From: a bacterium
GTDB taxonomy: Archaea > Thermoplasmatota > E2 > JACPAO01 > JAHFTW01
Length of the DNA stretch: 64,000 nucleotides
Assembly (NCBI GenBank): GCA_040390065.1
Contig: JAZJZE010000006.1
Coordinates: 1 to 64,000, forward strand
Direction: 5' to 3'
The notes below the pieces were generated by a model. It worked only from the letters and a program-made list of their open reading frames with translations. It did no database searches and was not told the DNA's origin. The translations under genes and the position numbers were made by a program. Position 1 is the stretch's first letter. Each line of letters starts with the position of its first letter. Below, in pieces: positions 24,106 through 61,522 of the stretch.

Positions 24106-24120
24106 GGTGTCGGAGCGTTG

Positions 24121-24210
24121 CACGCGCAACCGGGCCCAACGTAGCCAGAACCACTTAATGTCGCAACGCGATGGAAAGGGTTGGCTGAGGAGTCGGCCGG
24201 AGTGGTTGTC
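24121..24210 (+). promoter_or_regulatory. duplicated promoter/leader (copy 1)
   Basis: CACGCGCAACCGGGCCC..TAGCCAGAACCACTTAAT...GTGGTTG, homologous to 25961-26050, with TATA-like CTTAAT. Confidence 0.7.
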
Positions 24211-25854: not shown

Positions 25855-25960
25855 TCGTTGGACGACACGATCGATATCTCGGGCACCCAGCTGGAAGGCC
25901 TCATGCGGCCCGCCCGTGCGGACGCTTCTCTGCGCGCGCATCCGCGCCGGCACTCCGATC

Positions 25961-26050
25961 CACGCGCAATCGGGCCCGAACTAGCCAGCACCACTTAATC
26001 CCCCAACGCAATGCGAAGAGTCGGCCGAGAGTTCGGCCTGGGTGGTTGGA
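25961..26050 (+). promoter_or_regulatory. duplicated promoter/leader (copy 2)
   Basis: CACGCGCAATCGGGCCC..TAGCCAGCACCACTTAAT...GTGGTTG. Confidence 0.7.
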
Positions 26051-27820: not shown

Positions 27821-27831
27821 GGCGTGATTCA

Positions 27832-38910: not shown

Positions 38911-39042
38911 GGGCAGCCGCCGAGGCCCGCAAACGACTCTCCGCAACGGAGGGGGCGCATCAGAAAGCTTATAGTGGCTCAGGGTCCCTGCAACTTGCTC
39001 CGGAACGGCGCATGCCGGGCCGGGGCCACCGTGGTGCACAAC

Positions 39043-41615: not shown

Positions 41616-41624
41616 TTTTAAATA
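41616..41624 (+). promoter_or_regulatory. TATA box of giant protein 1
   Basis: TTTTAAATA ending 73 bp before ATG 41697, with a GAGGT RBS. Confidence 0.7.
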
Positions 41625-41696
41625 CCCCCATCATGGTTCAACCTGCCATTGTCCCTAGGGAGACCATCCCAAGGGCCAATTGATCGAGGTCCCACG

Positions 41697-44600
41697 ATGC
41701 AGCGCACGCAACCCACCGGCCGCCTGAACAGGTTCTCGGCCCTGACCCTGACGTCTCTCCTGGTAGTCGCCGGGCTTTTCGTCATCCCCCTGCTGGCCCC
41801 GAACGTCAGCGCTGCACCGCCCGTGGTCGCCAAACAATGGTACCAGGACCTCGACTGCAACGGCCACGTCGACGCGGTCACCATTGTCTTCAACGACCCG
41901 CTCGGCACCGCCGTGGCGATGAAGGACGACTCGATCCGTCCCTCCGACTTCACCCTCACCTACGCCCTCGGCACGGGCACCATCAGCATTCCCGCCAACG
42001 GCTTCATGACGACGGCACCCGTCCCCGGCTCCGGCTACCCCGCCGCCGGTTGCGTTGCCGGTGTCACCGCAGGCCTACCGTCCTCTCCCGGCACGAACCA
42101 ACCGACGGCGGCCAACGGCTGCCCCGCCGGAGCCGGCATCGACGACTCGTGCTTCACCCTCCTGTTCCCTGAAGGCCTCAACCCGGACGGCGGCCCCACG
42201 AACAACGGCGGCACGGCCTACAACCCGCCAGCCATCACGTACAACCCTGACGCTGCGGCACCGGCGCACACCGTCGCGGGCATCAACCTCGCGTCGCTTG
42301 GCGCTTGCGCCTCCGGCACCTGCCGGTTCGACGCGACCGCGCCGACGCTGCGCGCGGCCTACGCCAAGACCGGCGATTCGACCATCACCGTCCTGTTCTC
42401 CGAGAACGTCGGCGTCGGCGCCAACGCCGGCACCGTCCCGGCCGCCACGGACTTCTGCGTCACCGGCGCCGCGCAACTCGCGGGCAGCCCCCCTGTCTCC
42501 GTCCCGTCCGGAAGCCTGCCCAACCGCGGCTTCAAACTGACGCTCACGGCGCCCATTGCCAACCCCGCGGCCGTCACCGTCGGCGTCGGCAGCGGCACCT
42601 GCACCTCCAACATCGTCGACACCGCCGGCAACATCGTCCCCGGCCGCACGGTCACGACGGGCGCGCCCTTCGTCAACCGCGTCTATGCGAGCGCCGGCGA
42701 CGCGACCCTCGTGATCGAGTTCAACGGCCCCGTCTGGGACGGCACGACCGACATCACGCAGATTCAGAGCACCTTCGAGGTCATCACGGGTTCCGGCTCC
42801 GGCCTCACCGGCCTGCAGAGCACGGGCTTCCACACGAGCGGCTCCGACCGCGTCCAGGTCTCGGCCCAAGGCTCGCCGCCTAACAAGTGCGACATCACCC
42901 AGTCGGCGACCGATTGCGGTTCCGCCAACGCGGGCACCCGCATCCGCATCGCGGCCAACAAGATCTTCGGCTTCAAGGCGACCGGCATTCCTGAACAGCC
43001 CACCGGCACTCCGGTCGGCCCGTGCGTCTTCACCAACACCGCGGAGGATTTCTGCCTCAACGACCCCGTCAATGTCCCGACGCCTCCCGCCGGGGTCTCG
43101 GGCTCCATCACGGCGCCGCGCGTCGTGCAGTTCATGACCGAGGACACCAACCAGAACGGTTGCCTGGACACCATCAAGGTCACGTGGAACGAGAAGATGG
43201 ACGACAGCACGATTGGAGGAACGGGCTGGCGCGTCTTCTTCCCCAACGAGGTCGTGCAGACGCTGCCGACGATGCAGTCGCTTGAGCCGACGACCGGCGC
43301 CGGCGCGGCGAACGACCAGTACACGTACCTCAACTTCCTTGCGGGAGAGACCTGCACCGGCTCCACCCCGTCGCCCTACGGCAACACGGGCGTCCTGCCC
43401 CGGGTGTCCTTCTGCGACGGCATCGATGTCTCGCGCTCCGGCGCCTGCCTCACATCGACCAAGGACTTTTCGGGCCTGTTGAACACTGGCAGCCAAATGG
43501 TCGCCGGCAACAACATGGCTCTCAAGAATTACATCTACCGCGCCCCGACGGTCGACGGCGCCAAGCCTGTCATCGTGGCGGCTTCGACGCGCGACACGGC
43601 CCCCAACGACGGCTACCTCGACGCAATCAAGATCCAGTTCTCCGAGGGCATTGATGCAACCACGGTCGACGCGACGCAGTGGACGGCGGTCATCCCCGCC
43701 TGGACCGTCGCGGCCCGCTGCCCGCGCGCCGTCGGCTTCACCTACTCGGTGACGAGCGTCACGACGACCAACTCCAACCCGCAGACCCAGCCCGCGCTGC
43801 CGACCCTCGGCACACTCGCAGGCGACGTCATCCTCAACCTCGCGGCCACCCCGGTCACGAACCCGGTTGGCGACTCGGGCTGCGTCCCCGACGTCACGTA
43901 CACGGGCGGCGCCAAGTTCGTCAAGGAGTCCAGCGCCACACCGGGCGGCCTGCTGGCCAACAACGTCCCGGCGGACACGTCGATTGGCGTCTGCGCAGCG
44001 GACGGCACGCTCGGCGGCAACGGCAACACGTTCACCAACAACAAGCTGTGCGAGAACGATGGTGCGCCCCCCGTCATCATCCCGTCCCTGACGTTGGGCA
44101 CGGTCGGTTCCGACACGGCGTACGTCACGATGAGCGAGCCAGTGTTCGGTTCGGGCGGCGGTGCGCCTCCGGCAACCTGCGGCACGCCGGCGGCCGGTGG
44201 CACATGGGCGGCTAGCCAAGGCTTCCTGCGCGCCTCCGACTTCGACTACCAGGACAACTCCAACGGTGGCGCCACGGGCATCGCCGGAGTGAGCTCCATC
44301 AGCAGCGACTGCCGCAAGTGGCAGATCACCCTCAACGTCCCGAACGGCGGCGGCCTCAGCAGCTCGGACCAACTCGCCGACTGCATCCAGTCGCGCATTC
44401 CCACGTCGTCTGCCCAGGAAGGCATCCGCGATGCGGTCCCCGCAGCGCCTTGGGTCTCGCCCCCGGCCACACCGACCGGCATCGGCAACGTCGGCTACCC
44501 GACGGACGGCGCAACCATTCCCTGCGTCAAGTTCACGACTGGACCCTCGCCGGTCTCCGGCGCCGTCACGATGGACTCCGACAGGGACGGCTCCCTCGAC

Positions 44601-47600
44601 GCCATCCAAGTCACGTTCACGTCGAGCGTCAAGGACATCGTCACCAATGCGGCGACACCGGCCTTCGTGGCCGCCGCCTGTCCGGGTGACGCGGACTGTG
44701 GCGCCGCGTTCAAGGCCATCAGCGGATCGCTGGTCTGCCGCGTCGACGTCCTTCCGACTGCCGCTGGCACCGTCGGCCCCGAGGACCGCTTCTACGCCCA
44801 CGTGGGCGGCACATGCACGGCCACCGTCGCGGACGGAGACTTCCGTTACTCCGGAATGCCGGGCACGGCCGCCATCAACAAGAAGGCAGGGACCCCGGTC
44901 GTCTGTGTCGGCACGGCGGACGCTGACTGCGGCAATACCCTCACCGGCGTCACGGGAGGCACTCTGCGCCGGGTGGGTGGCCCAGGCAGCGGTGGCGCTC
45001 CCACGGCGACGGACCTGCTTTACAACGACGTCGGCGGCTCAAGCACGACGAACGTCGAGAACGGCGACTTCCGCCTGTCCGGCGCCGACTCGCGCGCCTG
45101 GTCCGTGACCTTCCCGTCCGGCGTCGCCATCGTGAGCGGTGTGAGCAGCGGCCAGGCCACCGGCCCCGGCACGCACTCCAACACGTTCGGCACCGCCCCC
45201 ACCGGCGCCGCCTGCCACGACTCGACGATCCTGACGGCCAACGTCGCCAACGACAACATCCTCTACATCTGCTTCGAGGAACTGCGCGACGCGGCCGGCA
45301 AGCTCATCCCGAACACGGGCGCGGTCCCGACGTTCAGCTACATGGGATCGACCCTGCTTGACTCGACGGGCGGCGTGATTGGTGTCTTCAACAACCAGGC
45401 GACGGTCGACGGCGCGCAGCCAGTCCTGGTCTCCGCCTTCGTCGGCACGGTTGCCACCGGCGCGTTGCCGATCCTCGGCGCGCAGCCCAAGACGATCACG
45501 GCCACGTTCAGCGAGCCGGTCACCGAGACGGGTGGCAACGCTCTCTTGGTCTCCGACTTCGCTTACACGAACGGCAACGCAGGTGCGGCCAACACGAACT
45601 GCCCCAGCGGCGCCGCGAGCCTTGCATCGCTCGTCTCCGGCGGCACGGCGCCCACGGGAACGCTCAGCCAGACGCACACGGTCGTGCTCACGACGGACGG
45701 GCCCATCACGACCTTCGACGTGGGGCCGAACCCCGTCACGGGCGTCTTCCTCGCCGGCGGCGGCACATGCCTGACAGTGTTCGACAGCGTCCGCGCCATC
45801 TCTGGCCAAGTGGTCGAGAAGGCGGCTCCGCACGCGACCGTCTACACGCCGGCCTCGGCCCTGCGCCTCACGGACGCGGAAGCTCCGAGCATCGCGAGCG
45901 CTGGTTTCATCGACGCCAACGGCGACGGCATCATCGACGCGGTCCAGGTCAAGTTCAACGAAATGGTCAACGACGCTCCGCTGACGGCCGCCGACTGGTC
46001 GGTCAAGATCGGAACGCAAGCGCTGACCATCAAGGCCGTGACGACGGGCCAAGACGGCACCGAAACCGTCGACGGGCCGGGCGTCTGCCAGAACACGTAT
46101 TCGCTCGCGACGGGCACGGGCGCCGTGAAGACGGTCTTCGCGCTGTACCCGGACGAGGTCACGCCCGCAACCGGATTCGGCAAGGGCCTCTTCGACGACA
46201 CCATCTTCCTCTGCCTCAACCCCGACGCGGCGACCGCCAACGGCGGCACCAAGACGCTGGGCACGGGAGCCACGGGCTCGCTGCTGTACTCCGCCGCTGC
46301 CCCCGCAAGCCGCATCACGGACGTCCAGATGGCGACGAACAAGTTGCAGGACCTCGCCGCGGCGGTCACCATCGCAGACCTGGCTCGCCCCGTCATCCTG
46401 AACAACTGCCGCGTCGGCTCGGTCCAAGCCGGGGCCACCTGCCCCGCAGATGTGTCCGACGTCAGCGTCGAGACGGTTGACCTCAACAGCAACGGCAAGA
46501 TTGACGCGCTGAAGGTCACGTTCTCGGAGAAGGTCAAGGACAGCACGTTCACGGTCGGCCAATGGAACCTCGCCGCACGCGCGCTCACGGGCATGCAGAG
46601 CGGCTCCATCGTCCCGACGCCGGCCGGCGAAGTCGACGACGCAACCATCTACCTCACCTTCGCCGAGGCCTCGTCGCTCGACAGCGGCACGGGCCGCTAC
46701 GGCTCGGCCACCATCCCCGACGTCGCGTACTTCGGTTCCGGCTCGATGAAGGACCTCAACAACAACCTGCTTCGCGGGGTGAGTCCCGGCGCGTGCAACG
46801 CACCGACCGTCGGCTGCTCCGACGAACGCGACGGCGCTGCCCCGACCATCGTATCCATCACGGCTGCGCCCGGCACGAACCTGGTCACCATCCAGTTCAG
46901 CGAGAACGTCGGCACGGGTGCGACGGGCACGGGCGCCATCGGCACGGCCGACCTGGCGTACGTCAACACTGCCTCGGGCGGTGCCTCCAGCATCAACAGC
47001 ATCAGCCACGCCGTCGGCAGCTCGACCCTGACGCTCACGCTGAATGCCAACCTGAACTCGGCCGATGTGGCAAGCGGCGGAGACAAGATCGTCTTCACAC
47101 CGGGCAACATCAAGGAGTTCAACTGCGGCGCCCACACGCCCCCGTACGCTTACCCCATCGTCGGCCCTGCGGCGCCCAACTCGTGCTACCGCGAAATCGC
47201 GATCACGCAGTCCAGCGTCGAACTCGCAGGTGTCAAGAGCCACGCGCCGCCGACCGCCCCGGTCCTCACGAAGGACCCAACCGGTGACACGGCAACGGGC
47301 GCCAAGTTCACCTGGACGGTCCCGACGACATCCGGTGGCGCGACCCTGGCATCCTACGAGTTCTTCGTGTGCCAGGCCCCGACGCTCCCCGCGTCGCACG
47401 CGGGCTGTGTTGCTCCGACCGGCGGCCAACCCGCCGCCTCGGCCACGTCGCTCACGGTGACCGGCCTTACGACGGGCAGCACGTACAGCTTCGGCATCCG
47501 TGCCATCGACTCGGACGGCCTGGCTGGCGCCGACTCCAACGGCATCAACGGTTATGTCCCGGCCGCGCCGGACACCGATCCGCCCTGCGCCATCACCGAC

Positions 47601-49061
47601 CTCTCGGTCGGCACGACGACCAGCAACTCGGTCACCCTGACATTCCAGTCGCCGTTCGAGGACTGCGCCGCCCACGCGGGCAAGGTCAAGAGCTACAAGG
47701 TTGCCGTCTCGACGGGCACCGCGATCGGTTCGCAGGCGCAGTTCGATGCAGCCGTCGCGACGACGGGCCTGTCGTTCAGCCCCGCCACGCCGCAAGCGAA
47801 CCCGACGCTTCAGGGGCTGACGGTCAGCAACCTCCAGCCCGGCCAGCAGTACCTCATCAGCGTCGAGGCCGTCGACGACGCCACCCCGACGGCCAACGTC
47901 GGTCCCCTCGGCGCCGCCGTCCCCGCAACGCCGTCGGCTCCTGGTGGGACGCCCGCCAAGATCGTCGACCTCGCCGTCACGGCCGGGTCGGCCTTCGGCA
48001 GCGTCGACCTTTCATGGTCAGCGCCGCCCAAGGACAGCCTCCTCGGAACGGGCACCGTGACGGGCTACGATGTCCGCATCACGACCTCGCCCGGTGGCCT
48101 CGGTGTCCCGGTGAGCAGCAGCGACCTGAGCTTCGGCTTCGGAACGCCGGGAGCACCGGGCCAACCGCAGAGCGCCACCATCTCGGGTCTGTCCGCCGAC
48201 ACGACGTACTACATCACCGTCGCCGGCAAGAACCTCGGCACGACCGGAACGCCGTCGACCCCCGCGTCGATCACGATCGGTTCCGACCCCAACGCGCTCA
48301 CCGTCGCGGCACTGACCGCGTTCGAGACCAGCTTCGCGAACACCCTCAAGGTCACGAACTCGGGCGGCACGAACACGCTGACCTGGGACACGCCGCCGGG
48401 CGACGCGACGCACGCGGCCGAGGGCATCCAGATCTGGAAGTCCACGAACGGCGGCCCGTACACGCTGGTCAAGACCATCTCGTCGCTCAGCCCCGAGTAC
48501 GGCCTGAAGTCGATGACGGACCCCGGCTCGTCCTCGGACAAGTACCGCGGGACGGTCTACTACGGCAACACGGCGGCCAGCGGGTTTGCCGCCAACGGCG
48601 ACCCCAACAGCATCCCGGGTTTCTCGAGCCTCCACGAGGCCAGCGCATCGTCCAACTTCCTGGGTCTCGACCCCATGATCTGGTGGATCATCATCGCGGC
48701 CGTCGGCCTGCTGTTGCTGCTGCTCATCATCCTCCTCATCGTCCGCAGCCGCCGCAACAAGGGCGGCGACTTCGCCGAGGAAGACGACGACGGAGGCTTT
48801 GCCGCGGTCGACGAGGGTGCCGAGGCGGCGCCTGCCATGGAAGCGCCCGATGCCCCGCCGGCGGATGCAGCCGCGGATGCGGCCGCAGCTTCGGCCGCCG
48901 TAGCCGCCGCCGCAGAGACGCCGCCGCCCGCGCAACCACAGGCCTCGGCCGAAAAGCACTACCTCACGTGCCCCAAGTGCACGACCGAGTTCACGGCCAT
49001 GGGTGTCAAGCCGCTTGCCATCCAATGCCCGAACTGCGGTGTCCGCGGCACGCTCCGTTAG
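41697..49061 (+). CDS. giant single-pass surface protein 1 (DxDxNG/Ig-like repeats, FN3, TM, cytoplasmic Zn-ribbon)
   Basis: Signal peptide, six DxDxNG-x-[ILV]D-x-[IVL]-x-[VI]-x-F-like units, FN3-like WTVP/WSAP domains, TM WWIIIAAVGLLLLLLIILLIV and CPKC...CPNC. Confidence 0.88.
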   Translation: MQRTQPTGRLNRFSALTLTSLLVVAGLFVIPLLAPNVSAAPPVVAKQWYQDLDCNGHVDAVTIVFNDPLGTAVAMKDDSIRPSDFTLTYALGTGTISIPANGFMTTAPVPGSGYPAAGCVAGVTAGLPSSPGTNQPTAANGCPAGAGIDDSCFTLLFPEGLNPDGGPTNNGGTAYNPPAITYNPDAAAPAHTVAGINLASLGACASGTCRFDATAPTLRAAYAKTGDSTITVLFSENVGVGANAGTVPAATDFCVTGAAQLAGSPPVSVPSGSLPNRGFKLTLTAPIANPAAVTVGVGSGTCTSNIVDTAGNIVPGRTVTTGAPFVNRVYASAGDATLVIEFNGPVWDGTTDITQIQSTFEVITGSGSGLTGLQSTGFHTSGSDRVQVSAQGSPPNKCDITQSATDCGSANAGTRIRIAANKIFGFKATGIPEQPTGTPVGPCVFTNTAEDFCLNDPVNVPTPPAGVSGSITAPRVVQFMTEDTNQNGCLDTIKVTWNEKMDDSTIGGTGWRVFFPNEVVQTLPTMQSLEPTTGAGAANDQYTYLNFLAGETCTGSTPSPYGNTGVLPRVSFCDGIDVSRSGACLTSTKDFSGLLNTGSQMVAGNNMALKNYIYRAPTVDGAKPVIVAASTRDTAPNDGYLDAIKIQFSEGIDATTVDATQWTAVIPAWTVAARCPRAVGFTYSVTSVTTTNSNPQTQPALPTLGTLAGDVILNLAATPVTNPVGDSGCVPDVTYTGGAKFVKESSATPGGLLANNVPADTSIGVCAADGTLGGNGNTFTNNKLCENDGAPPVIIPSLTLGTVGSDTAYVTMSEPVFGSGGGAPPATCGTPAAGGTWAASQGFLRASDFDYQDNSNGGATGIAGVSSISSDCRKWQITLNVPNGGGLSSSDQLADCIQSRIPTSSAQEGIRDAVPAAPWVSPPATPTGIGNVGYPTDGATIPCVKFTTGPSPVSGAVTMDSDRDGSLDAIQVTFTSSVKDIVTNAATPAFVAAACPGDADCGAAFKAISGSLVCRVDVLPTAAGTVGPEDRFYAHVGGTCTATVADGDFRYSGMPGTAAINKKAGTPVVCVGTADADCGNTLTGVTGGTLRRVGGPGSGGAPTATDLLYNDVGGSSTTNVENGDFRLSGADSRAWSVTFPSGVAIVSGVSSGQATGPGTHSNTFGTAPTGAACHDSTILTANVANDNILYICFEELRDAAGKLIPNTGAVPTFSYMGSTLLDSTGGVIGVFNNQATVDGAQPVLVSAFVGTVATGALPILGAQPKTITATFSEPVTETGGNALLVSDFAYTNGNAGAANTNCPSGAASLASLVSGGTAPTGTLSQTHTVVLTTDGPITTFDVGPNPVTGVFLAGGGTCLTVFDSVRAISGQVVEKAAPHATVYTPASALRLTDAEAPSIASAGFIDANGDGIIDAVQVKFNEMVNDAPLTAADWSVKIGTQALTIKAVTTGQDGTETVDGPGVCQNTYSLATGTGAVKTVFALYPDEVTPATGFGKGLFDDTIFLCLNPDAATANGGTKTLGTGATGSLLYSAAAPASRITDVQMATNKLQDLAAAVTIADLARPVILNNCRVGSVQAGATCPADVSDVSVETVDLNSNGKIDALKVTFSEKVKDSTFTVGQWNLAARALTGMQSGSIVPTPAGEVDDATIYLTFAEASSLDSGTGRYGSATIPDVAYFGSGSMKDLNNNLLRGVSPGACNAPTVGCSDERDGAAPTIVSITAAPGTNLVTIQFSENVGTGATGTGAIGTADLAYVNTASGGASSINSISHAVGSSTLTLTLNANLNSADVASGGDKIVFTPGNIKEFNCGAHTPPYAYPIVGPAAPNSCYREIAITQSSVELAGVKSHAPPTAPVLTKDPTGDTATGAKFTWTVPTTSGGATLASYEFFVCQAPTLPASHAGCVAPTGGQPAASATSLTVTGLTTGSTYSFGIRAIDSDGLAGADSNGINGYVPAAPDTDPPCAITDLSVGTTTSNSVTLTFQSPFEDCAAHAGKVKSYKVAVSTGTAIGSQAQFDAAVATTGLSFSPATPQANPTLQGLTVSNLQPGQQYLISVEAVDDATPTANVGPLGAAVPATPSAPGGTPAKIVDLAVTAGSAFGSVDLSWSAPPKDSLLGTGTVTGYDVRITTSPGGLGVPVSSSDLSFGFGTPGAPGQPQSATISGLSADTTYYITVAGKNLGTTGTPSTPASITIGSDPNALTVAALTAFETSFANTLKVTNSGGTNTLTWDTPPGDATHAAEGIQIWKSTNGGPYTLVKTISSLSPEYGLKSMTDPGSSSDKYRGTVYYGNTAASGFAANGDPNSIPGFSSLHEASASSNFLGLDPMIWWIIIAAVGLLLLLLIILLIVRSRRNKGGDFAEEDDDGGFAAVDEGAEAAPAMEAPDAPPADAAADAAAASAAVAAAAETPPPAQPQASAEKHYLTCPKCTTEFTAMGVKPLAIQCPNCGVRGTLR

Positions 49062-49071
49062 GCCGGTCCAG

Positions 49072-49093
49072 CCTTTTCTCCCCTTTTCCCCCC
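49072..49093 (+). terminator. pyrimidine-rich archaeal terminator
   Basis: CCTTTTCTCCCCTTTTCCCCCC just after the stop. Confidence 0.55.
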
Positions 49094-49237
49094 GTGCCGT
49101 CACCGCCAACCTACGGCGTCCGCGGATTTGCCTGAAATACCGTGCAGGACCGGTTTGGCCCACGCGCATCTTGCGAGGCCGCGGACTGGGAGCACATTTT
49201 GCCGATTTTGGCGTACCGTTTTGGTCAATCGGCGCAC

Positions 49238-49324
49238 TCCAGATGGATGACGAACTGGAAGGCATCTGCGCAATGGAGCCCGCGGTTCGGTCGGGTCCGA
49301 ATCTGTTGCTTGTTGTTTTAAATA
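49238..49324 (+). promoter_or_regulatory. conserved 38-bp upstream element (copy A) plus TATA box
   Basis: TCCAGATGGATGACGAACTGGAAGGCATCTGCGCAATG at 49238-49275 and TTTTAAATA at 49316-49324. Confidence 0.75.
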
Positions 49325-49400
49325 CGTCCAGGGATGGGACGGACCAGCAACGCTGATTGCGTGCCGCGAGGGCCGCGTCGGTGTGCCTTGAGGCAACAAC

Positions 49401-54596: not shown

Positions 54597-54603
54597 GCCA
54601 CAA

Positions 54604-54642
54604 CCCCCATTTTCCCTCCTTTTCCCTCGTCCTTTCCTGTCC
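54604..54642 (+). terminator. pyrimidine-rich archaeal terminator
   Basis: CCCCCATTTTCCCTCCTTTTCCCTCGTCCTTTCC after the stop. Confidence 0.55.
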
Positions 54643-54770
54643 GTCCGGGCGCCGACGCCTTGCCCGCCATCCCTGGGAGAGTGGGTCAGCTCCGGGGGGC
54701 TATGGCGGCCGGGCCGGCGCCAGACCGGGGCCAACCAGGGGGTCGCCCAGGAGGGGCAATCTGCGGGGAA

Positions 54771-54851
54771 TCCAGCTGGATTGCGAACGGGAAGGCATCT
54801 GCGAAATGCCCGTTCGGTTGACTCCGAATCTGTTCCTTGGCGTTTTTAATA
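54771..54851 (+). promoter_or_regulatory. conserved 38-bp upstream element (copy B) plus TATA box
   Basis: TCCAGCTGGATTGCGAACGGGAAGGCATCTGCGAAATG (33/38 to copy A) and TTTTTAATA at 54843-54851. Confidence 0.75.
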
Positions 54852-54921
54852 CCCCCCAGATTGGAGAACCATGGGACCGGTGCGCCTTTTGGTGACGCCG
54901 GCCTCAAGACGAGGTCAAATC

Positions 54922-57900
54922 ATGGCATCGAAGTCGAGCCGAATGGGTCAGCTGCTGGGTCCCCTGGTGCTGGCGTTCCTGATGGTCTTCACGGTCCTTG
55001 CGACGGTGACACCGCAAGCACAGGCTGCCGTGACGAGCCGACCGGAAGGCAAGGTCCTGATCACCACGGAGCCCGACTTCAACCTCCCCAACTACGACCA
55101 GATGGGGCCCACCGGGTCGATCTTCTACCCGTGGCAGGCGCAGCCGCCCGGACCGACGACGCAGCCGCCGCAGGTCGTCAACAACCCCTTGGCGACGTAT
55201 CCGAAGAACCCGGCGACCGTGTACGTCAACACGAAGCACCAGGACCCGGACGGCAAGTGTCCGGGCTGCTTCCAGCGCACGGTGCGCGTCGCCTTCAACG
55301 ACATGGCCGTGACCCGCATCGACTTCGTCGCCCCGACCCGCGACGCCTTCTCGACGCCGGTCTGCAGCAACACCCCGGTGGATGCCTGGGCCGCCGCGAT
55401 GGACCCGTGCAAGGACCACGGCATGCTGCGCTGGCGCCCCGAGTATTCCTACGCCACCCGGCCTGGCTGGGCCGTGAGCGTCAACGCGGAGAACGCGAAG
55501 AAGAGCCAATGCGACGACCCGATCAAGTGCGCCATGGGCGACGACACGCCGCCGGCGCGCATCATGAGCTTCACGTCCGACGTGCCGAACCCGGTGCCCA
55601 GCCTGCTCTTGGGAACGACGCCGGGCGACGCTCGCCTCGCCAACGCCCTCGATATCGTGCTTGCCTTCTCCATCGATGGCACGCCTTCTGGCGACGACGG
55701 CATGCAGACGTTCCCGCAGACGCCCGCCGACGAATTCCACGTCCAGATCAACGTGACACCGTCGGGAAACCCCAACATCCCGTTCGAGACGACCTGCCCT
55801 GCATGGAACTCGGCCACCGGCGTCAACGGCAACCCGCAAAGCCCCTTCACCTGCGTCTACACCAACCCGCCGTTCAAGGGACCTGCGCCCGTCAACTTCC
55901 CGGCTGAGTTCATCGCCGACCCGCGCTTCTCGTCCGTCGACTGCGGTGTCCCGGGCGGCTTGTGCACCGGCACTCCTGGCCTCGTGATCCGCGTCGACAA
56001 CACGCCGCCGGAAGTCCACGAGACGTCCAACGGCGACGCCCGCGTGGCTGCCGGAAACGGCGGTCCCATCCCGTGTGTCTGCAGTTTCTTCTCGCAGGAC
56101 GTCGACCACAACGGCCACATCGACCGCTTCATCGTCTCGTTCACCGAGCCGCTGAACCCGAACACCTTCGACTTCCGCCAGTTCAGCATCCAGACGAAGG
56201 GCCGCGACCGCCCCTACACGATCACGAACGCCTTCTTCGAGCAGCAGAGGGCCGGCCCCGGCCCCGAGGAAGGCCTGTGCTTGCAAGGGCTCACGACCCC
56301 GCCCGCGCAGACGCCGCCTCTCACGCCGATTCGCATCACGTACCCTGGCTCGACGTGCCGCGTCGACTTCCTCGTGGCGGAGATGCCCTTCATGGACTCC
56401 GGCGACACGCCGAACCTGAAGTATCCCTGTGACCTCTGCCCCGCGACGGCCACGGACCGCGCCGGCAACCCGCTCAAGAAGATGACTGGCACGACCATCC
56501 TCGCCGTCGACCGCGCCCCACCGATCCTCTACTCGACGTACGCACTCGACGCCGCCCACAACGGTGGCGTCCCCTACGCGCAGACGGAACTGCAGGTCTT
56601 CTTCTCCGAGAACGTCATGGGCTCTGGCTGCAACGACCCGCAGGCCGGCCCGCCCGCAACCTGCGGCACGCGCCCCGTCCAGTTCAACGACTTGTGCTAC
56701 ATGGACAATGTCTCGCCCGGCGGTGCCGGCGACGTGATCGGCAAGCCGACGCCAGACCTGCCCTCGGGTGGCCGCGTCATCACGAGCATCACGACGACCA
56801 TCAATCCGTCCGACACGCTGAACTTCGCGACGGGCCCCGTCATCACGGCCGGCCAGATCTACTACATCGGCACCGTAACATCGGGAACGACGACCGGCGG
56901 CGGCGCCACCAGGCTCATCGACACGAGCAAGAACTTCGCAGCCATCGGCGTCACGGTCGGCATGATCATCGACTTCAGCGGCGGATGCTCGGCGCCCATC
57001 GGCGCATGCACCGGCTGCTTCTCCCTCGATACGCCGTATGACACGACATCGGCCGTCTGCCAGCCCGCACCCAAGTGCCGCTACTTCGACCTCGTCGACC
57101 ACACGCCGGCACCGGGTGCCAGCTCCGTCGGCACGGCTGGCGACGGCTGGAAGATGCGCGTGCTGACGATGCTCAACCCGACGGACACCAACAACCGACT
57201 CATGTACGGTTCGGCCGACGTGCATCCGTTCAACGGCGACATGATCACGGTCAACGTCGCGCCGCACGGACTGACGCGCGGCTGCTTCGCCGTCATGCTG
57301 GAGCAAGGCATCCTCGGCACCGACCCGTGCAACGCCGACGTCCGCGACCTGCACGACAACGGCGCCTGGTACCCGACCGGCCTGCCGCGCGTGGCCTACC
57401 CGCGCCCGCCCGCCTTGGCGCATGTGACGTTCCCGATGGTCAAGTCGGCGACCGTCGATTCAAGCAACCCCAGTTGCCCGCAGTCCACGCCCGGCAAGGG
57501 CGTCGGTCCCGGTGACCTCACGGACACGGTTGCCTGCCACTACTGGCTGAAGCTGCAGTTCAATGGCCCGGTGCGCGGCCCCAACGGCCCCGCCTCGTGC
57601 GACACGACGACCGGCAGCGGCAAGACGGCGAAGCCGTTCTTCGCCTGCAACCTCGACATCAAGGCCGCCACCGGCAAGGAGCTCGGCCAAGGCCCGCAGG
57701 GCTTCTTCGGCCCGGCGCCGCCGTCCACGACCGGCTCAAGCAGCACGGCCACGCAGGCGCCCTACTACCTGATGGGCGACAACGACCAGGCAGTCCTGCA
57801 GATGGACTACGCCGCCCGACCCATCGACGTCTCCCTGAGCGGAGCGCGCGTCAAGCTCGTCTGCAACACCATCTTCGCAACCCCGGGCTGGGTCAGCAAG

Positions 57901-60900
57901 TACAGCCTCGACCCGAGCACGACCGGCGTCAACCCGCTGGTCGGCGCCATCCCCTGCGACGACCCCGACCAGTACTACGGTCCGCAGGAAGACTTTGGCG
58001 GCGTCGTGCAGCGCCCCGACATCGACATCGTCGACCTGACGCCGCCTCGCATCCTCGAGGCCCGCACCGTCGATGCCGACCACAACGGCTACCTCGACGG
58101 CGTGCAGCTGACCTTCAGCGAGCCCATCGACGACGGCAGCTACTGCGGCAACGACCCGTCCGCGCAGGCCGCGCCCAACTTCTGCCCTGACACCGAATCC
58201 GGCGCCGGCACGGGCTACATCACGTTCTCGCGTTGGACTTCGCAGGAGATGATCCGCGCCATGACGGACGTGCACGAGGAAGAGTGCTTCGCCTCGTCCG
58301 GTACACTGGACGGCACCGACACGGGCACGCCCTACACGGACGGCTTCAAGTGGGACACGGGCACGCTGTCCAACGACAACGTCGGCACCATCCTGCACGT
58401 GCGCACACTGACGCAGCAGGACGGCTCTTACATCACGCGTCCGCAGGACTGCAACGAATACTTCCGTGGCGTCCGCATGGATGGCCTGCCAAACCCGCCT
58501 GCCCCCAACGGCGACGGCGCGACGCGGCCCCTGCAGCGCTGGCCGACGGATTCGCTCCTGCACATCACTTCCCCGGTGCCCGGCCTCTTCTCGGATCTGG
58601 CGACCCATCCGTTCCACGACAACTCGGACATCTTCAGCCCGCCCAACTCGCCGCCGGTTGCCAACCCCAACCAGTTGCCGCGCATCTGCCAGTTCGAGTC
58701 GCGCGCCATGACGGGCCAGGCGGGCACCTACAACCAGGTGCAGAGCCACCCGAGTGCGGCGTGCGACACGACGCAGATCACGGTGGATTCCGTGCGTGTG
58801 ACGGACGGCGCGCCGCCCGTGCTCTGGAAGGCGCAGACGTACGACACGCCTGTCCTCGATGTCAACGGCATCCCCGACACCAAGAACTTCTGGAACAACC
58901 TGTTCGGCGACGGCACCATCGACGGCTACCGCCTGACCTTCAGCGAACGGGTCAACGACGGAAGCTTTGTCGCCGCCGACTGGCACGTGGCGGGCCACGA
59001 CACGCTGGAGTTCACCAACCCGACGGGCTGCAGCAAGCCGGGCAAGACGACGTATGTCAACCACGAGGTCACGATCGACACCGTCATCCCGGGCAAGGCC
59101 CTCATGCGGACGCGGGACACGACGCTGAACCCGTTCGACCCGCTGCAGAACGACCAGATCTCGCAGGGCCAGAGCGACGACCAGTTCATCCTGCTGTTCA
59201 CGCCGGCGAAGACCATCTTCACCAAGCCGGACGGCTGCAAGGAGTTGCACGCCGCGTACGACACGGAGACGAAGCCTGAACTGACGGCGTCCGGCCCCAA
59301 CGGCCACTTGCACATGGCGGACCGCGCCGGCCTCCTGAAGCCGAACCCGATCTGCCCCAGCAACACCGCCAACTGCTGCCCAGGCGGGCCGTCCATCAAC
59401 AACTGCATGGTCGACTTCGACACCTTCGCCGTGCAGGAAGAGGACCGCGCCGGTCCACAGATCGTGCGCATCGAGGGCTTCGCCGGAACGAACCACATCG
59501 ACGTGCGCTTCAGCGAACCCGTCGACGACGGCAGCCACAGTGGCCTGGTGCGCGACGACTTCCAGTACTTCGACAAGAACGCCAAGGACGTGGCGGGCTT
59601 CTCCAGCACGGAGCCCGTGGAGTCCACGGCCGGTGGCCGCAACTCCACCATCCACCTCGGCCAGCTTCTGACGGTCTCCGACCAGACGTCGGACAAGATC
59701 GCCGCCAGGACCTGTCGCATCTACGAGGTCGCTCCGTCGGTCAGCCCGTCGCAGCGCCAATGCGTGCCGAGTTACCCGCGCTCGCTCGTGCCCGAGAACG
59801 ACACCGCCGCGCCCGGCGCCCTGTCCGACTTCCGCATCGTGGCCGAGCTCACGAACGCCAACAGCCTGACAGCGAGCTGGACCGCGCCTGCCGACGACGG
59901 CACGGCCGGCAAGCCAGTGTCGGGCTACACGTGCCTCGTCGGTACGCGCACGATCCTCGGCAACGAGACGAACGACAACCGCATCAGCTTCTCGTACGAC
60001 CCGCCGGTGTCGTCGCTTGCCGGACCGGGCCTCACGCAGACCGTCCGCATCGCAGGCCTCGACTCGGAAGCCAAGTACTACATCGCCTGCTACGCCAAGG
60101 ACGATCTCGGCAACCTGTCGCCGCTGTCCGAGGTGGCGTCCGGGACGACGACGCGCGATGTCACGCCGCCGACCGGCACCATCACCATCAAGTCGCCGTC
60201 GCACCCCGCCGGCGTCCCGACGGCTGGCAACACCATCTCGTTCACCTGGAACGCCATCACGAAGGCGCAGGAGCCCGAGTCGACCGTGGTGTACCACTAC
60301 GCGCTCAACACGAACCCGAACTACGTGGTTCTCGCCACCGACGGTGCAACCCAGGACACGAAGGTGACGCAACTCGCTCCGGGCGACGGCACGTACTACT
60401 TCCACGTCGCGGCCATGAGTGGCGGCGGCTCGACGCTCACGGCCCACTACCAGGTCGTGGTCGGCTTGCCCCCGCTGACGGTCGCCTCGATCGAGTCGGC
60501 CAACGACCTCGTCAAGACCGAGCCGTTCCGCCAGGAGCAGGAGTTGAACGGCCAGACGGTCGTCCTCAACAACGTCACCTGGACGCTGCCGCCGGACACG
60601 ACCCCTCCCGGCTTGGACATCAGCGGCGTCGAGATCTGGCGCGAGGACCACGGCATCTTCACGAAACTGAACCTCGCCGACACGGACCCGAAGATCTGCT
60701 CGCACCCGCTGTCGGGCTCGTACGACGACCTGAAGAGCGGTCACTGCTGGGACACGAGCCTAGGCGCCACCGCCGACTCGAAGTACAAGGTCACGATGGT
60801 CTTCGCGACCCCCCCGCACACGCAGGGCGAACCCGTGAAGGGCTACGCCGGCCTCGTGGACCAGACACCGGGAGTCGTCCCGCCGTGGATCTGGATTCTG

Positions 60901-61161
60901 GCCGGCATCGCGCTGGCGCTCATCCTGTCGGGTCTCGTGATCTTCGTGATCCTGAAGCGCCGCTCCAAGCTCGAAGCCACCGGCGGCACCGCCTACAGCT
61001 GGGAGTCGGCCAACCCCGAACTCCTCGGCATCGACGAGGCCACCGGCCTGCCCGTGCACGAAGTGCGCTGCCCGTCCTGCAACAACCCGTTCCAGGCCGT
61101 CGGCGCTCTCCCCTTGCCGGTCACGTGCCCGACTTGCGGCACGACCGGGGAACTCGAATAG
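54922..61161 (+). CDS. giant single-pass surface protein 3
   Basis: GAGGT RBS, signal peptide, DVDHNGHIDRFIVSFTE / DADHNGYLDGVQLTFSE units, FN3, TM and CPSC...CPTC. Closest to protein 2 (shared YHYALNT.P.Y.VL and YFHVAA.SGGGS). Confidence 0.88.
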   Translation: MASKSSRMGQLLGPLVLAFLMVFTVLATVTPQAQAAVTSRPEGKVLITTEPDFNLPNYDQMGPTGSIFYPWQAQPPGPTTQPPQVVNNPLATYPKNPATVYVNTKHQDPDGKCPGCFQRTVRVAFNDMAVTRIDFVAPTRDAFSTPVCSNTPVDAWAAAMDPCKDHGMLRWRPEYSYATRPGWAVSVNAENAKKSQCDDPIKCAMGDDTPPARIMSFTSDVPNPVPSLLLGTTPGDARLANALDIVLAFSIDGTPSGDDGMQTFPQTPADEFHVQINVTPSGNPNIPFETTCPAWNSATGVNGNPQSPFTCVYTNPPFKGPAPVNFPAEFIADPRFSSVDCGVPGGLCTGTPGLVIRVDNTPPEVHETSNGDARVAAGNGGPIPCVCSFFSQDVDHNGHIDRFIVSFTEPLNPNTFDFRQFSIQTKGRDRPYTITNAFFEQQRAGPGPEEGLCLQGLTTPPAQTPPLTPIRITYPGSTCRVDFLVAEMPFMDSGDTPNLKYPCDLCPATATDRAGNPLKKMTGTTILAVDRAPPILYSTYALDAAHNGGVPYAQTELQVFFSENVMGSGCNDPQAGPPATCGTRPVQFNDLCYMDNVSPGGAGDVIGKPTPDLPSGGRVITSITTTINPSDTLNFATGPVITAGQIYYIGTVTSGTTTGGGATRLIDTSKNFAAIGVTVGMIIDFSGGCSAPIGACTGCFSLDTPYDTTSAVCQPAPKCRYFDLVDHTPAPGASSVGTAGDGWKMRVLTMLNPTDTNNRLMYGSADVHPFNGDMITVNVAPHGLTRGCFAVMLEQGILGTDPCNADVRDLHDNGAWYPTGLPRVAYPRPPALAHVTFPMVKSATVDSSNPSCPQSTPGKGVGPGDLTDTVACHYWLKLQFNGPVRGPNGPASCDTTTGSGKTAKPFFACNLDIKAATGKELGQGPQGFFGPAPPSTTGSSSTATQAPYYLMGDNDQAVLQMDYAARPIDVSLSGARVKLVCNTIFATPGWVSKYSLDPSTTGVNPLVGAIPCDDPDQYYGPQEDFGGVVQRPDIDIVDLTPPRILEARTVDADHNGYLDGVQLTFSEPIDDGSYCGNDPSAQAAPNFCPDTESGAGTGYITFSRWTSQEMIRAMTDVHEEECFASSGTLDGTDTGTPYTDGFKWDTGTLSNDNVGTILHVRTLTQQDGSYITRPQDCNEYFRGVRMDGLPNPPAPNGDGATRPLQRWPTDSLLHITSPVPGLFSDLATHPFHDNSDIFSPPNSPPVANPNQLPRICQFESRAMTGQAGTYNQVQSHPSAACDTTQITVDSVRVTDGAPPVLWKAQTYDTPVLDVNGIPDTKNFWNNLFGDGTIDGYRLTFSERVNDGSFVAADWHVAGHDTLEFTNPTGCSKPGKTTYVNHEVTIDTVIPGKALMRTRDTTLNPFDPLQNDQISQGQSDDQFILLFTPAKTIFTKPDGCKELHAAYDTETKPELTASGPNGHLHMADRAGLLKPNPICPSNTANCCPGGPSINNCMVDFDTFAVQEEDRAGPQIVRIEGFAGTNHIDVRFSEPVDDGSHSGLVRDDFQYFDKNAKDVAGFSSTEPVESTAGGRNSTIHLGQLLTVSDQTSDKIAARTCRIYEVAPSVSPSQRQCVPSYPRSLVPENDTAAPGALSDFRIVAELTNANSLTASWTAPADDGTAGKPVSGYTCLVGTRTILGNETNDNRISFSYDPPVSSLAGPGLTQTVRIAGLDSEAKYYIACYAKDDLGNLSPLSEVASGTTTRDVTPPTGTITIKSPSHPAGVPTAGNTISFTWNAITKAQEPESTVVYHYALNTNPNYVVLATDGATQDTKVTQLAPGDGTYYFHVAAMSGGGSTLTAHYQVVVGLPPLTVASIESANDLVKTEPFRQEQELNGQTVVLNNVTWTLPPDTTPPGLDISGVEIWREDHGIFTKLNLADTDPKICSHPLSGSYDDLKSGHCWDTSLGATADSKYKVTMVFATPPHTQGEPVKGYAGLVDQTPGVVPPWIWILAGIALALILSGLVIFVILKRRSKLEATGGTAYSWESANPELLGIDEATGLPVHEVRCPSCNNPFQAVGALPLPVTCPTCGTTGELE

Positions 61162-61226: not shown

Positions 61227-61522
61227 GATGCCAAGCCAGGGCACTAGGGGGCGCCGTTCGTGTCATGCTCCACTTGGGCCATAGGGTGGTGTCAGCCCCT
61301 AAGACCCCCCAGCGGACGGCGCAGCGTCGCCCGGCGCCGCTGCGCCGGCCATCGCACCGGGCCCTCCCGGGCCACCTCCCCCACCATTCGGTAGGCACGC
61401 CAGCGCGTCGCAGCGCCTCGCGGGCCGCGATGCCCCCGTCGCACGAAGCGGTCCTTTCCACCTAAATAGCGAAAAACCCCTGTGCCGACCATGGGGCCGC
61501 CATGCGTTGGGGAGGATTCCGC

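Follow-up and report, generated by a model that had tools for sequence, protein, structure and literature searches.

Three giant genes in tandem

The window analysed here, a 64-kb stretch of the genome of an uncultured Thermoplasmata archaeon, contains three adjacent giant genes on the + strand, which encode proteins A (41697..49061; 2454 aa), B (49401..54596; 1731 aa) and C (54922..61161; 2079 aa). These correspond to the tandem ORFs and coordinates of an earlier note on this DNA, except for the start of C, whose frame is open from 54871. Position 54871 lies only 28 nt from the start of the TATA box. ATG 54922 is 79 nt away, has a GAGG ahead of it that is spaced as in A and B, and yields a proper signal peptide, which makes it the most likely start of the gene. 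As described earlier, all three proteins carry a signal peptide, seen as an N-terminal signal-peptide-like segment with a basic n-region, a hydrophobic core and a VSA/AAA/AQA site (approximately residues 1-39 in A). In A it is followed by an Ig-like rod, three fn3 stretches, a TM helix, an acidic Ala/Pro-rich linker of 72 aa and a terminal zinc ribbon; in B, ~12 beta-sandwich domains lead to a TM helix, which a linker of 30 aa separates from the terminal ribbon. Sequence and structure models indicate that the three giants are type-I membrane proteins and paralogues, with one predicted helix holding the rod in the membrane. B and C are by sequence clearly paralogues of each other (33% identity over 967 columns, E 2e-101); what links A to them is just the type of module and the tail. 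The paralogues have diversified from one another.

Each gene is preceded on the + strand by a consensus TATA box and a GAGG motif resembling a ribosome-binding site. The TATA box TTTTAAATA is located 81 nt ahead of the ATG of A (41616..41624) and 85 nt ahead of that of B (49316..49324), and the box TTTTTAATA 79 nt ahead of ATG 54922 of C (54843..54851), with GAGG at 41686..41689 (7 nt ahead of ATG 41697), 49390-49393 and 54911-54914, respectively. The motif TTTT[TA]AATA occurs at exactly three sites on both strands of the window, each shortly upstream of one giant, which bears out the claim that every gene has its own TATA box. The terminator-like signal likewise claimed for each gene was found for A and B, where two archaeal terminator-like T4 runs follow the stop codon within 27 nt (49074..49087 and 54610..54623, both on the + strand, which carries 31 such runs in the window), but not for C, which has no T-run. 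Furthermore, a perfect 14-nt palindrome (AATCCAGCTGGATT, 54769..54782) lies within the promoter-upstream region common to B and C, and its copy upstream of B is imperfect. Codon bias of the three giants is above average, with CAI values of 0.745 for B (rank 77/1378), 0.741 for C (rank 84/1378) and 0.702 for A (rank 202/1378) against a median of 0.610, calculated with an impure reference set of which several member genes score 0.50-0.63. GC3 of A is 0.89.

Ectodomains

FN3-like domains were identified above the Pfam fn3 (PF00041) gathering cut-off of 25 bits in all three proteins, as had been proposed. A contains three stretches (47247..48272, + strand, approximately residues 1851-2192; 78.9 bits, E 3.3e-22), with an additional weak fn3_4 match at residues 1851-1944, and single domains were found in B (53079..53450, + strand, residues 1227-1350; 25.6 bits) and C (59851..60138, + strand; 26.3 bits). 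The description of the ectodomains as Cys-rich repeats was overstated. What recurs is an Ig-like module whose start is marked by a D-x-[DN]-x-[DN]-G-x-h-D loop together with an F-[ST]-E-P-V strand (four strict matches in A, three in B and two in C), and several domains begin with a calcium-loop-like DxDxDG motif. Cys content amounts to 2.0, 1.8 and 2.6% in A, B and C, respectively, compared with 1.26% in the genome-wide ORF set; the ectodomain counts are even (46, 28 and 50), and the remaining four Cys of each protein are located in the ribbon.

AF2 models of B, which are of moderate confidence (mean pLDDT 72.6 and 69.8), show strings of beta-sandwiches, a TM helix and a ribbon of four strands. 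Foldseek matches were generic and comprised only tandem FN3/Ig ectodomains, which dominate the list, the glycoprotein FMG1B (E 5e-12) and the S-layer protein SbsC (probability 0.96). The term cadherin-like is unsupported, since no cadherin family matched A, B or C in Pfam at E <= 0.1, and E-cadherin appeared in Foldseek only as a low-ranked generic fold. Pfam also returned no lectin or other ligand-binding family for the three proteins. With a single N-X-S/T sequon in its 2454 residues, A differs from typical archaeal S-layer proteins, which are N-glycosylated.

Membrane topology and the terminal zinc ribbon

The predicted TM helices are encoded on the + strand at 48678..48740 in A (residues 2328-2348, followed by VRSRRNK), 54339..54401 in B (residues 1647-1667, followed by RSKR) and 60889..60951 in C (followed by LKRRSK). 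In B, the AF2 helix spans model residues 765-789, which correspond to protein residues 1644-1668. The proteins run on for 64-106 residues past the helix, with the basic cluster and the ribbon separated by 72 residues in A, 30 in B and 35 in C. Each of the 32 family tails analysed includes a hydrophobic helix whose following 10 residues hold more K/R than those preceding it, and 30 of the 32 have a net acidic linker. The positive-inside rule thus puts the ribbon in the cytoplasm in 32/32 predicted topologies, in agreement with the earlier proposal, and nothing places it outside. No archaeosortase or PGF-CTERM-type sorting signal model passed in A, B or C; GG_III-CTERM matched A alone, with 18.3 bits against a cut-off of 22. 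Proteins with such signals end in the TM helix and a short basic tail, unlike the giants with their 64-106 further residues.

The last 34 residues of each protein form the ribbon, at 48957..49058 in A (HYLTCPKC...CPNCGVRGTLR), 54492..54593 in B and 61057..61158 in C (all + strand), matching the family profile with 65.5, 65.9 and 56.2 bits, respectively. The tail sequences quoted previously are exact. All three follow the pattern CPxC-x17-CPxCG, the four Cys are invariant in 32 aligned family tails, and the AF2 model of the B ribbon contains four short strands (pLDDT 75-85). By sequence the ribbon is closest to the MJ0042/Zn_ribbon_4 type (NCBIfam TIGR02098; Pfam PF13717 and, for Zn_ribbon_5, PF13719), whose CxxC - ~17-19 residues - CxxC finger spacing is present in all three tails. 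TIGR02098 was the top family for 32/32 isolated tails at E <= 1. The isolated B tail scored 25.3 bits against the TIGR02098 cut-off of 20.9 with only a half-site aligned, compared with 13.5 bits for whole protein B, and reached 23.8 bits against Pfam Zn_ribbon_4 (cut-off 30.3); multi-ribbon relatives found by the same ribbon profile pass this last cut-off with 62.7, 50.2 and 38.7 bits. MJ0042-type fingers are usually N-terminal, ahead of a membrane segment, whereas the ribbon of the giants ends the protein behind the TM helix. B and C additionally keep a G-x-D-x-x-T-G-L-P-x-H motif ahead of the ribbon.

Conservation and distribution

Conservation is much stronger in the tail than in the ectodomain, as claimed before. 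Between the giants and their orthologues in the relatives G004 and G007, identity ranges from 74 to 97% in the ribbon (A 85% and 74%; B 94% in both; C 97% and 88%), from 31 to 65% in the ectodomain and from 33 to 90% in the TM helix. The B ribbon is identical to that of G007 at 32 of 34 positions, while the ectodomain of that orthologue is 37% identical; the ribbon classes A, B and C differ from one another. Ribbon codons differing synonymously/non-synonymously number 13/5, 7/9, 14/2, 9/2, 14/1 and 13/4, with synonymous differences in excess in five of the six comparisons (14/2, 9/2 and 14/1 belong to B and C), pointing, together with the identities, to strong purifying selection on the ribbon. 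Conservation alone is no proof of a binding surface, because most invariant residues (four Cys, two Pro, F, G and L) may be structural.

A best tail match at E <= 1e-10 was obtained in 22 of 24 family genomes, mostly ending ORFs of 1200-3000 aa, and completeness of the two genomes without such a match is 76% and 71%. Both G004 and G007 show synteny across the trio and its flanks; in several genera, genes for an FtsX-like protein and an acyl-CoA dehydrogenase lie 3' of the giants. In agreement with the earlier remark that such tails occur on membrane proteins of the phylum, the ribbon profile matched 127 of 301 Thermoplasmatota genomes at E <= 1e-6, as an end-piece behind the last membrane helix. 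Of 1.84 billion representative proteins, 695 matched at E <= 1e-3; among the best 150 of these, the ribbon closes 138 proteins; TM helices lie exclusively ahead of it in 134 and behind it in none, while 16 lack a TM helix by the threshold used, some of which may be fragments. The membrane proteins that carry the ribbon vary widely in kind and size, and many relatives carry two to four ribbons in series. Among 21 ORFs from other families, 20 contain one to four ribbons behind the last TM helix and the remaining one has no helix by the same threshold. No described family or known function for such tails was found in the literature searched; an already described S-layer or adhesin family with a known tail function would have spoken against the earlier reading.

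Comparison with known systems

Cytoplasmic zinc ribbons of membrane proteins have been reported to recruit partners in several systems. ZitP of Caulobacter crescentus (ZnR-TM-DUF3426) is described as a bitopic membrane protein like the giants, with a cytoplasmic C4 Zn_ribbon_4/5 (MJ0042) ribbon of ~40 residues that binds PopZ and serves as a localisation knob (PMC5182065). The family profile matched the structure of the ZitP ribbon (PDB 2nb9) weakly but over the whole ribbon (E 0.06). Unlike the giants, ZitP and PopZ are bacterial, and ZitP has an N-terminal ribbon and a small periplasmic domain, whereas the ribbon of the giants is located at the extreme C-terminus of proteins of 1700-2450 residues. 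In the Agl-Glt focal-adhesion machine of Myxococcus xanthus, the ribbon of GltJ is reported to recruit MglB; as in the giants, it is cytoplasmic and on a disordered linker, and it links a surface adhesion complex to internal regulators (PMC11135422). The GltJ ribbon is, however, N-terminal and paired with a GYF domain, for which Pfam returned no match in A, B or C.

Among archaea, CdpC of Haloferax volcanii (HVO_0399, DUF7093) is reported to bind FtsZ1 through a CPxCG-type C-terminal ribbon, joined as in the giants by a long disordered linker to the membrane-binding part, and remote multi-ribbon relatives of CdpC are reported from all Thermoplasmatota classes (bioRxiv 10.64898/2026.07.16.738847). 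In contrast to the giants, CdpC is a small peripheral protein with an amphipathic-helix anchor and without an ectodomain. The likeness amounts to analogy, with no sign of homology at the thresholds used: DUF7093 matched neither A, B nor C at E <= 0.1, and it did not come up when five multi-ribbon relatives (P0020, P0067, P0034, P0049 and P0063) were listed in full against Pfam at E <= 0.01. Thermoplasmatales heliorhodopsins, from the same phylum, are described with Zn_ribbon_4 extensions, the same ribbon family, also at the cytoplasmic end of a membrane protein, for which the authors propose recruitment of partners; here the ribbon is N-terminal and on a 7-TM photoreceptor (bioRxiv 10.1101/2021.02.01.429150).

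The giants also resemble archaeal S-layer and coat proteins in being large, secreted, fast-evolving strings of Ig-like domains with a C-terminal anchor and strong promoters. The Haloferax S-layer glycoprotein is such a coat protein of Ig-like domains with a C-terminal membrane anchor, and in haloarchaea processing turns this anchor into a lipid anchor. Archaeal S-layer proteins build a regular lattice on the surface and rank among the most abundant proteins. Unlike the giants, no S-layer or coat example known to us has a folded cytoplasmic domain. By fold, SbsC of Geobacillus (4uic) is similar. Chlamydomonas FMG1B forms a surface coat and, to our knowledge, has no zinc-ribbon tail. It was the best fold match of the N-terminal half (PDB 9gos, by its title a flagellar membrane glycoprotein; 3878 residues), but it is eukaryotic, and the match, at 13% sequence identity, rests on generic tandem beta-sandwiches.

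Possible functions of the giants and their ribbon

We consider the chances about even that the giants are core envelope-coat proteins docked by the ribbon to a putative cytoplasmic partner. The Sec signal peptide would send a rod of ~12 Ig/FN3-like beta-sandwich domains outside the cell, and the single C-terminal helix would hold it in the membrane. In this wall-less Thermoplasmata lineage, the giants would be core components of an external coat and not occasional adhesins, and the coat could be either S-layer-like or a less ordered 'exterior protein layer'. Such a core role would fit the near-universal presence in the family at a conserved locus, the consensus TATA boxes and the above-average codon bias. 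Cultured Thermoplasmatales are described as having no S-layer and no S-layer-like genes (PMC12448462). With this and the one sequon in A, a lattice-forming role can only be guessed at, and the giants might instead be near-universal adhesins.

On the cytoplasmic side, the last 34 residues are predicted to form a C4 zinc ribbon of the MJ0042 type, borne on a flexible linker that is mostly acidic. The ribbon would act as a docking module for a conserved cytoplasmic protein, and its binding would fix where the giants are inserted, clustered or held, by a logic that may parallel ZitP-PopZ, GltJ-MglB and CdpC-FtsZ1. Cytoplasmic docking is supported by the topology, the purifying selection and the strict position behind the last helix. 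Of the common cytoplasmic partner proposed earlier, the conserved cytoplasmic ribbon stands, probably there to meet a putative common partner; no conserved cytoplasmic gene was found adjoining the trio. Our first guess for this partner, and no more than a guess, is FtsZ or a different cytoskeletal or scaffold protein.

It is possible, if rather unlikely, that the giants are accessory adhesins or receptors, with ectodomains binding substrates, particles or cells and a ribbon relaying or anchoring the contact inside, through signalling or a focal-adhesion-like link. Fast ectodomain evolution (53-65% identity within the genus versus 89% for the neighbouring acyl-CoA dehydrogenase), variable copy number among relatives (one, two or three), diversified paralogues, fold matches to animal adhesion receptors and the GltJ precedent of a ribbon in a focal-adhesion machine (PMC11135422) argue in this direction. 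However, at least one tail-bearing giant is present in 22/24 family genomes at a conserved locus, and such near-universal presence at a fixed locus better fits a core envelope component. Furthermore, the 64-kb window yielded no genes for signalling, motors or pili, the 89%-complete genome no Roadblock/MglB-like (Robl_LC7) gene and the giants, as noted above, no cadherin, lectin or other ligand-binding family. The earlier reading as receptors or adhesins thus holds in so far as A, B and C are predicted type-I surface giants, and less well as regards an accessory adhesive role.

A ribbon without a partner, either a zinc-stabilised plug that locks the helix of a load-bearing rod or a topogenic or quality-control end-piece in biogenesis, appears doubtful. 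A plug would fit with the ribbon constantly closing the protein behind the last helix (138 and 134, respectively, of the 150 top representatives), with the expected structural role of the family-invariant residues and with the occurrence of the ribbon on such different membrane proteins. Against a plug, however, non-structural positions are nearly frozen within each orthologue class (32/34 in B versus G007), the classes nevertheless differing among themselves, and B and C also keep the motif before the ribbon; nor does a plug account for the two to four serial ribbons and the 16 of 150 helix-less representatives, some of them maybe fragments. A ribbon for binding nucleic acid or a transcription factor, through which the giants would tether DNA or RNA or sequester a regulator at the membrane in an anti-sigma-like manner to report envelope state, is very improbable: although comparable zinc ribbons of other proteins are DNA- or RNA-binding and weak matches to Brz, TFIIB-type and ribosomal ribbons were obtained, these lie far below the cut-offs, the tails are not basic, with net acidic linkers in 30/32, and no regulator gene was found linked to the giant locus.

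Beyond a coat docked to a cytoplasmic partner, we tentatively consider a broader and on the whole unlikely possibility, in which the ribbon is a phylum-wide address tag of Thermoplasmatota that plugs unrelated surface and membrane proteins, coat giants included, into a single scaffold inside the cell, for instance the FtsZ ring or a different cytoskeletal hub. If so, the protein coat outside these wall-less archaea would be linked through the membrane to their cytoskeleton, as a counterpart in archaea to integrin-type linkage and midcell-directed envelope growth, and the ribbon surfaces specific to classes A, B and C would belong to one network with the soluble multi-ribbon proteins.

Organization of the giant gene locus

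The region from 41.7 to 61.2 kb of the window is occupied by three long plus-strand frames encoding the giants A (41697–49061, 2454 aa), B (49401–54596, 1731 aa) and C (ending at 61161). As read from sequence and structure models together, their architecture shows putative type-I giants built of Ig/FN3-like domains, with a predicted zinc ribbon at the extreme cytoplasmic end. The host genome, that of a Thermoplasmata archaeon, comprises 2.68 Mb on 50 contigs (89% complete, about 68% G+C), the window being positions 1–64000 of contig C6, and the third-position G+C of the three genes (0.89–0.92) is the highest among the genes in that part of the window. Counting either strand, the 64-kb window contains only three copies of the element TTTT[TA]AATA (41616, 49316 and 54843), and every copy shortly precedes one of the giants. 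The distance from TATA start to ATG is 81 nt in A and 85 nt in B, with a GAGG before each ATG. The frame of C is open from an ATG at 54871 (2096 aa), just 28 nt past the TATA start; a second ATG at 54922 lies 79 nt past it, with GAGG spacing as in A and B and a normal signal peptide, and since these three features fit, the start of C was assigned to 54922 (2079 aa). Two T4 runs are found at most 27 nt past the stops of A and B, out of 31 T4 runs in total on the plus strand of the window, and none follows the stop of C on that strand.

B and C share homologous sequence over approximately 85 nt preceding their TATA boxes. The C copy of this shared region contains a perfect 14-nt palindrome, AATCCAGCTGGATT (54769–54782), with an imperfect B copy near 49238–49251, which could be a candidate regulator-binding site common to both genes. 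Among sequencing runs listed as containing this stretch there is no RNA run, only one DNA run that may come from the source sample. The codon adaptation index (CAI) is 0.745 for B, 0.741 for C and 0.702 for A compared with a median of 0.610 (ranks 77, 84 and 202 among the 1378 genes with 200 codons or more), calculated against an impure reference set of ribosomal-protein, elongation-factor and thermosome genes, some members of which were mis-called by the heuristic. This ranking is topped by a different part of the genome, the 67-kb contig C10 outside the window, which has a third-position G+C of 0.95–0.99 versus about 0.85 for the genome and may be a binning artifact or else an element of mobile or foreign origin. 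Several C10 ORFs have Cys-rich C-terminal tails.

The trio is embedded in a gene order that is syntenic in two related genomes with orthologs of A, B and C (G004 and G007), consisting of a tRNA synthetase (Trp/Tyr-tRNA synthetase), a transglutaminase-like protein, a 324-aa unknown protein, a thrombospondin type-3 repeat (TSP3) protein, the giants, an FtsX-like permease and an acyl-CoA dehydrogenase; the permease and dehydrogenase genes are located downstream of giants in several genera. The transglutaminase-like gene upstream (36248–37936) and the FtsX-like permease gene downstream (61502–62899) keep their places in related genomes, and the product of neither is cytoplasmic only; a conserved cytoplasmic neighbor that might serve as partner is absent around the trio. 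In the 64-kb window, genes for pilus machinery, a KaiC-like ATPase or the cytoskeleton were not seen. Five secreted proteins with thrombospondin type-3 repeats (Pfam TSP_3) are encoded nearby, at 22474–30174 and 38974–41493, and the one directly upstream of A ends in a C-terminal transmembrane (TM) helix followed by RRK and has no ribbon. The region around the trio is a surface-protein island in which the ribbon is specific to the giants.

Relationship and ectodomains of the giants

At the sequence level, B and C are clear paralogs, sharing 33% identity over 967 columns (E 2e-101) in their C-terminal halves and weaker matches in their N-terminal parts. The matches of A to B (E 4e-12) and to C (E 5e-13) are weaker and stem from a repeated module, the tail and the FN3 region. 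In a tree built from the C-terminal 450 residues of 29 family members, B and C are sisters (support 98/93), single genes of two other genera fall outside this pair, and A clusters with A-like genes of G007 and another relative, G019 (86/93). These groupings place the split between A and B/C before the genus and the duplication that gave rise to B and C later.

All three giants open with a signal-peptide-like segment. Pfam fn3 scores above cut-off in A, B and C (78.9, 25.6 and 26.3 bits) and Big_5 does so in B; an NCBIfam scan of the whole giants returned no family above cut-off, and neither Pfam nor NCBIfam scans matched a cadherin family in any of them. The repeated unit opens on a D-x-[DN]-x-[DN]-G-x-h-D loop, after which comes an F-[ST]-E-P-V strand, with four strict matches in A, three in B and two in C; the likeness of this loop to DxDxDG loops suggests that it might bind calcium. 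Cysteine is moderately enriched (2.0% in A, 1.8% in B and 2.6% in C compared with 1.26% in ORFs genome-wide), and the ectodomain cysteine counts are even (46, 28 and 50, respectively). Giant A contains a single N-X-S/T sequon over its 2454 residues, a density of 0.04 per 100 aa compared with 0.58 in B, 0.34 in C and 0.31 across the genome, despite a Ser plus Thr content of 20%, and N-glycosylation sites therefore seem to be avoided in A only.

AF2 models of B, computed as two halves with a 17-row alignment each (mean pLDDT 72.6 and 69.8), consist of beta-sandwich strings, a TM helix spanning residues 1644–1668 and four short ribbon strands (pLDDT 75–85). Foldseek searches with these halves retrieved generic tandem FN3/Ig ectodomains and no specific fold relative, the most suggestive matches being FMG1B, a coat glycoprotein of Chlamydomonas (E 5e-12), and SbsC, an S-layer protein (probability 0.96).

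Membrane topology and conservation of the ribbon

The C-terminal parts of A, B and C share the order of a hydrophobic helix, a K/R cluster (RSRRNK, RSKR and KRRSK), a linker (72, 30 and 35 residues) and a 34-residue CPxC-x17-CPxCG ribbon, and the three tail sequences given in an earlier note on this DNA exactly match those encoded. In a set of 32 distinct tails from the window and its relatives, all contain a strongly hydrophobic 21-residue stretch, and in all of them the 10 residues past the helix hold at least two K/R and more K/R than the 10 preceding it. Because of this positive-inside pattern and the N-terminal signal peptide, the ribbon of the family giants is predicted to be cytoplasmic. 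Linker length ranges from 30 to 118 residues, with a net acidic composition in 30 of the 32 tails; of these 32 tails, taken from the window and loci L004–L032, 20 contain linker aromatic-acidic motifs (for example WDD, WEE, WQE or FEE), which look like short linear binding motifs.

The ribbon (34 aa) is better conserved than the ectodomain in every comparison with the G004 and G007 orthologs, with identities of 85% and 74% versus 55% and 32% for A, 94% and 94% versus 65% and 37% for B, and 97% and 88% versus 60% and 31% for C, respectively; those of the TM helix (33–90%) and linker (35–83%) are intermediate. Synonymous/non-synonymous differences in the ribbon codons are 13/5, 7/9, 14/2, 9/2, 14/1 and 13/4, with synonymous changes in excess in five of six comparisons. 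The ribbon is thus conserved at the protein level and not by recent copying. Directly N-terminal to it, a G-x-D-x-x-T-G-L-P-x-H motif is kept in B and C.

The MJ0042-type zinc finger TIGR02098 is the top NCBIfam family for all 32 isolated tails; the isolated B tail scores 25.3 bits (cut-off 20.9) with only a half-site aligned. The tails also match Pfam Zn_ribbon_4 and several further generic ribbon families, in each case below cut-off, and multi-ribbon relatives from the ribbon-profile search score above the Zn_ribbon_4 cut-off. Among solved structures, only generic CxxC matches were obtained, the best being the Aart zinc finger (1.7e-5, summed over half-sites), and the ZitP ZnR structure 2nb9 matches the ribbon profile at E 0.06. 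In the ESM Atlas, the TM-plus-tail part has one match at 0.80, to a Thermoplasmatota Zn_ribbon_4/DUF7560 cluster, a value below the level that shuffled proteins also reach and thus a lead only. MJ0042-type ribbons are known from bitopic membrane proteins of bacteria, where they are N-terminal, whereas the ribbon of the giants is C-terminal. Within the archaea, Thermoplasmatales heliorhodopsins are reported to carry a Zn_ribbon_4 extension (bioRxiv 10.1101/2021.02.01.429150). Searches of the full-text literature, covering main texts outside subscription journals, found no description of giant archaeal surface proteins that end in a C-terminal ribbon.

Distribution of the ribbon

A profile of the three tails finds matches at E ≤ 0.01 in 39 of 41 related genomes. 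Within the family (24 genomes sampled), the best tail match reaches E ≤ 1e-10 in 22 genomes, typically ending ORFs of 1200–3000 aa, and the two genomes lacking such a match have completeness values of 76% and 71%. A best match of this strength is present in four of six genomes from the order's two other families. Tandem trios are present in G004 and G007, pairs in four further relatives (G016, G017, G018 and G019) and single genes elsewhere. A related-locus search recovered four loci in two MAG records, which correspond to G004 and G007, and when the last 532 residues of B served as query in a word-indexed search, only 12 proteins were returned, all unnamed or 'hypothetical'. Strong ribbon matches in the host genome are restricted to the three giants. 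Two further membrane proteins (C1:250468–252060 and C21:19247–20593, both minus strand) match weakly, one with the ribbon N-terminal, ahead of a TM helix, in a ZitP-like orientation and the other with the ribbon near the C-terminus, past two helices.

A profile of the 32 family tails matches at E ≤ 1e-6 in 127 of 301 Thermoplasmatota genomes and in none of those from three large families (0/36, 0/21 and 0/42). Among 21 ORFs from other families, ranging from 158-residue two-helix proteins up to type-I proteins of 1000–2000 residues, 20 have one to four ribbons past the last TM helix, and in one the helix was undetected. A search of 1.84 billion representatives yielded 695 matches at E ≤ 1e-3, including 184 at E ≤ 1e-10. 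In the best 150 of the 695, the ribbon is terminal in 138 and helices lie solely before it in 134, none has a helix after the ribbon, a helix is lacking altogether in 16, and giants of at least 1000 residues with one terminal ribbon account for 56. At loci L037, L038 and L050 in other families of the class, and among proteins P0016, P0020 and P0044, the ribbon profile finds small conserved proteins (about 158–180 aa) with two TM helices and two ribbons, as well as proteins with two to four ribbons in which no TM helix was detected; both types may be the 'multi-zinc-ribbon' CdpC relatives of a 2026 preprint, which reports remote relatives of this kind in all Thermoplasmatota classes (bioRxiv 10.64898/2026.07.16.738847). 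DUF7093 (the CdpC family) has no Pfam match in the giants or the multi-ribbon relatives scanned.

A putative coat with a proposed cytoplasmic docking knob

Their near-universal presence in the family, fixed locus, consensus promoters and above-average codon bias suggest that the giants are core coat proteins of the lineage rather than occasional adhesins. Cultured Thermoplasmatales are described as having no S-layer and a dense, unordered 20-nm protein layer instead (PMC12448462), and an unordered layer built of giant rods is here as likely as a true lattice.

The ribbon would act as a docking knob, by analogy with three experimentally studied membrane-tethered zinc ribbons that act in this way: ZitP has been reported to bind PopZ (PMC5182065), GltJ to recruit MglB (PMC11135422), and haloarchaeal CdpC to bind FtsZ1 via its C-terminal ribbon (bioRxiv 10.64898/2026.07.16.738847). 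The main rival explanation is that the ribbon is a partner-less, zinc-stabilized plug; its non-structural positions are frozen within each class, and both serial ribbons and relatives without a detected membrane helix exist, which makes the plug less likely. With regard to docking, an MglB-type partner as for GltJ was rejected, as no Robl_LC7 (Roadblock/MglB-like) match was found in the 89%-complete genome. The genome does contain an FtsZ1-like gene (C1:174628–175761), an FtsZ2-like gene (C2, about 57.0–58.2 kb) and, on C5, a pair of distant tubulin-like genes, and given the missing Roadblock/MglB-like match FtsZ is the first candidate partner of the ribbon.

Soils, sediments, oceans and guts all harbor abundant Thermoplasmatota, many of which lack a cell wall; to our knowledge, almost nothing is known about the organization of their surface proteins. 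The ribbon is small, strongly conserved and ends hundreds of membrane proteins, including the largest surface proteins of the lineage, and therefore provides a concrete handle, a 34-residue bait for what lies under the membrane. A ribbon that binds nothing would represent a novel type of membrane-anchor end-piece. Were its partner a protein of the cytoskeleton or of cell division, this would show how an archaeal envelope is positioned from the inside and would tie surface biology to the newly described haloarchaeal zinc-ribbon FtsZ anchor.
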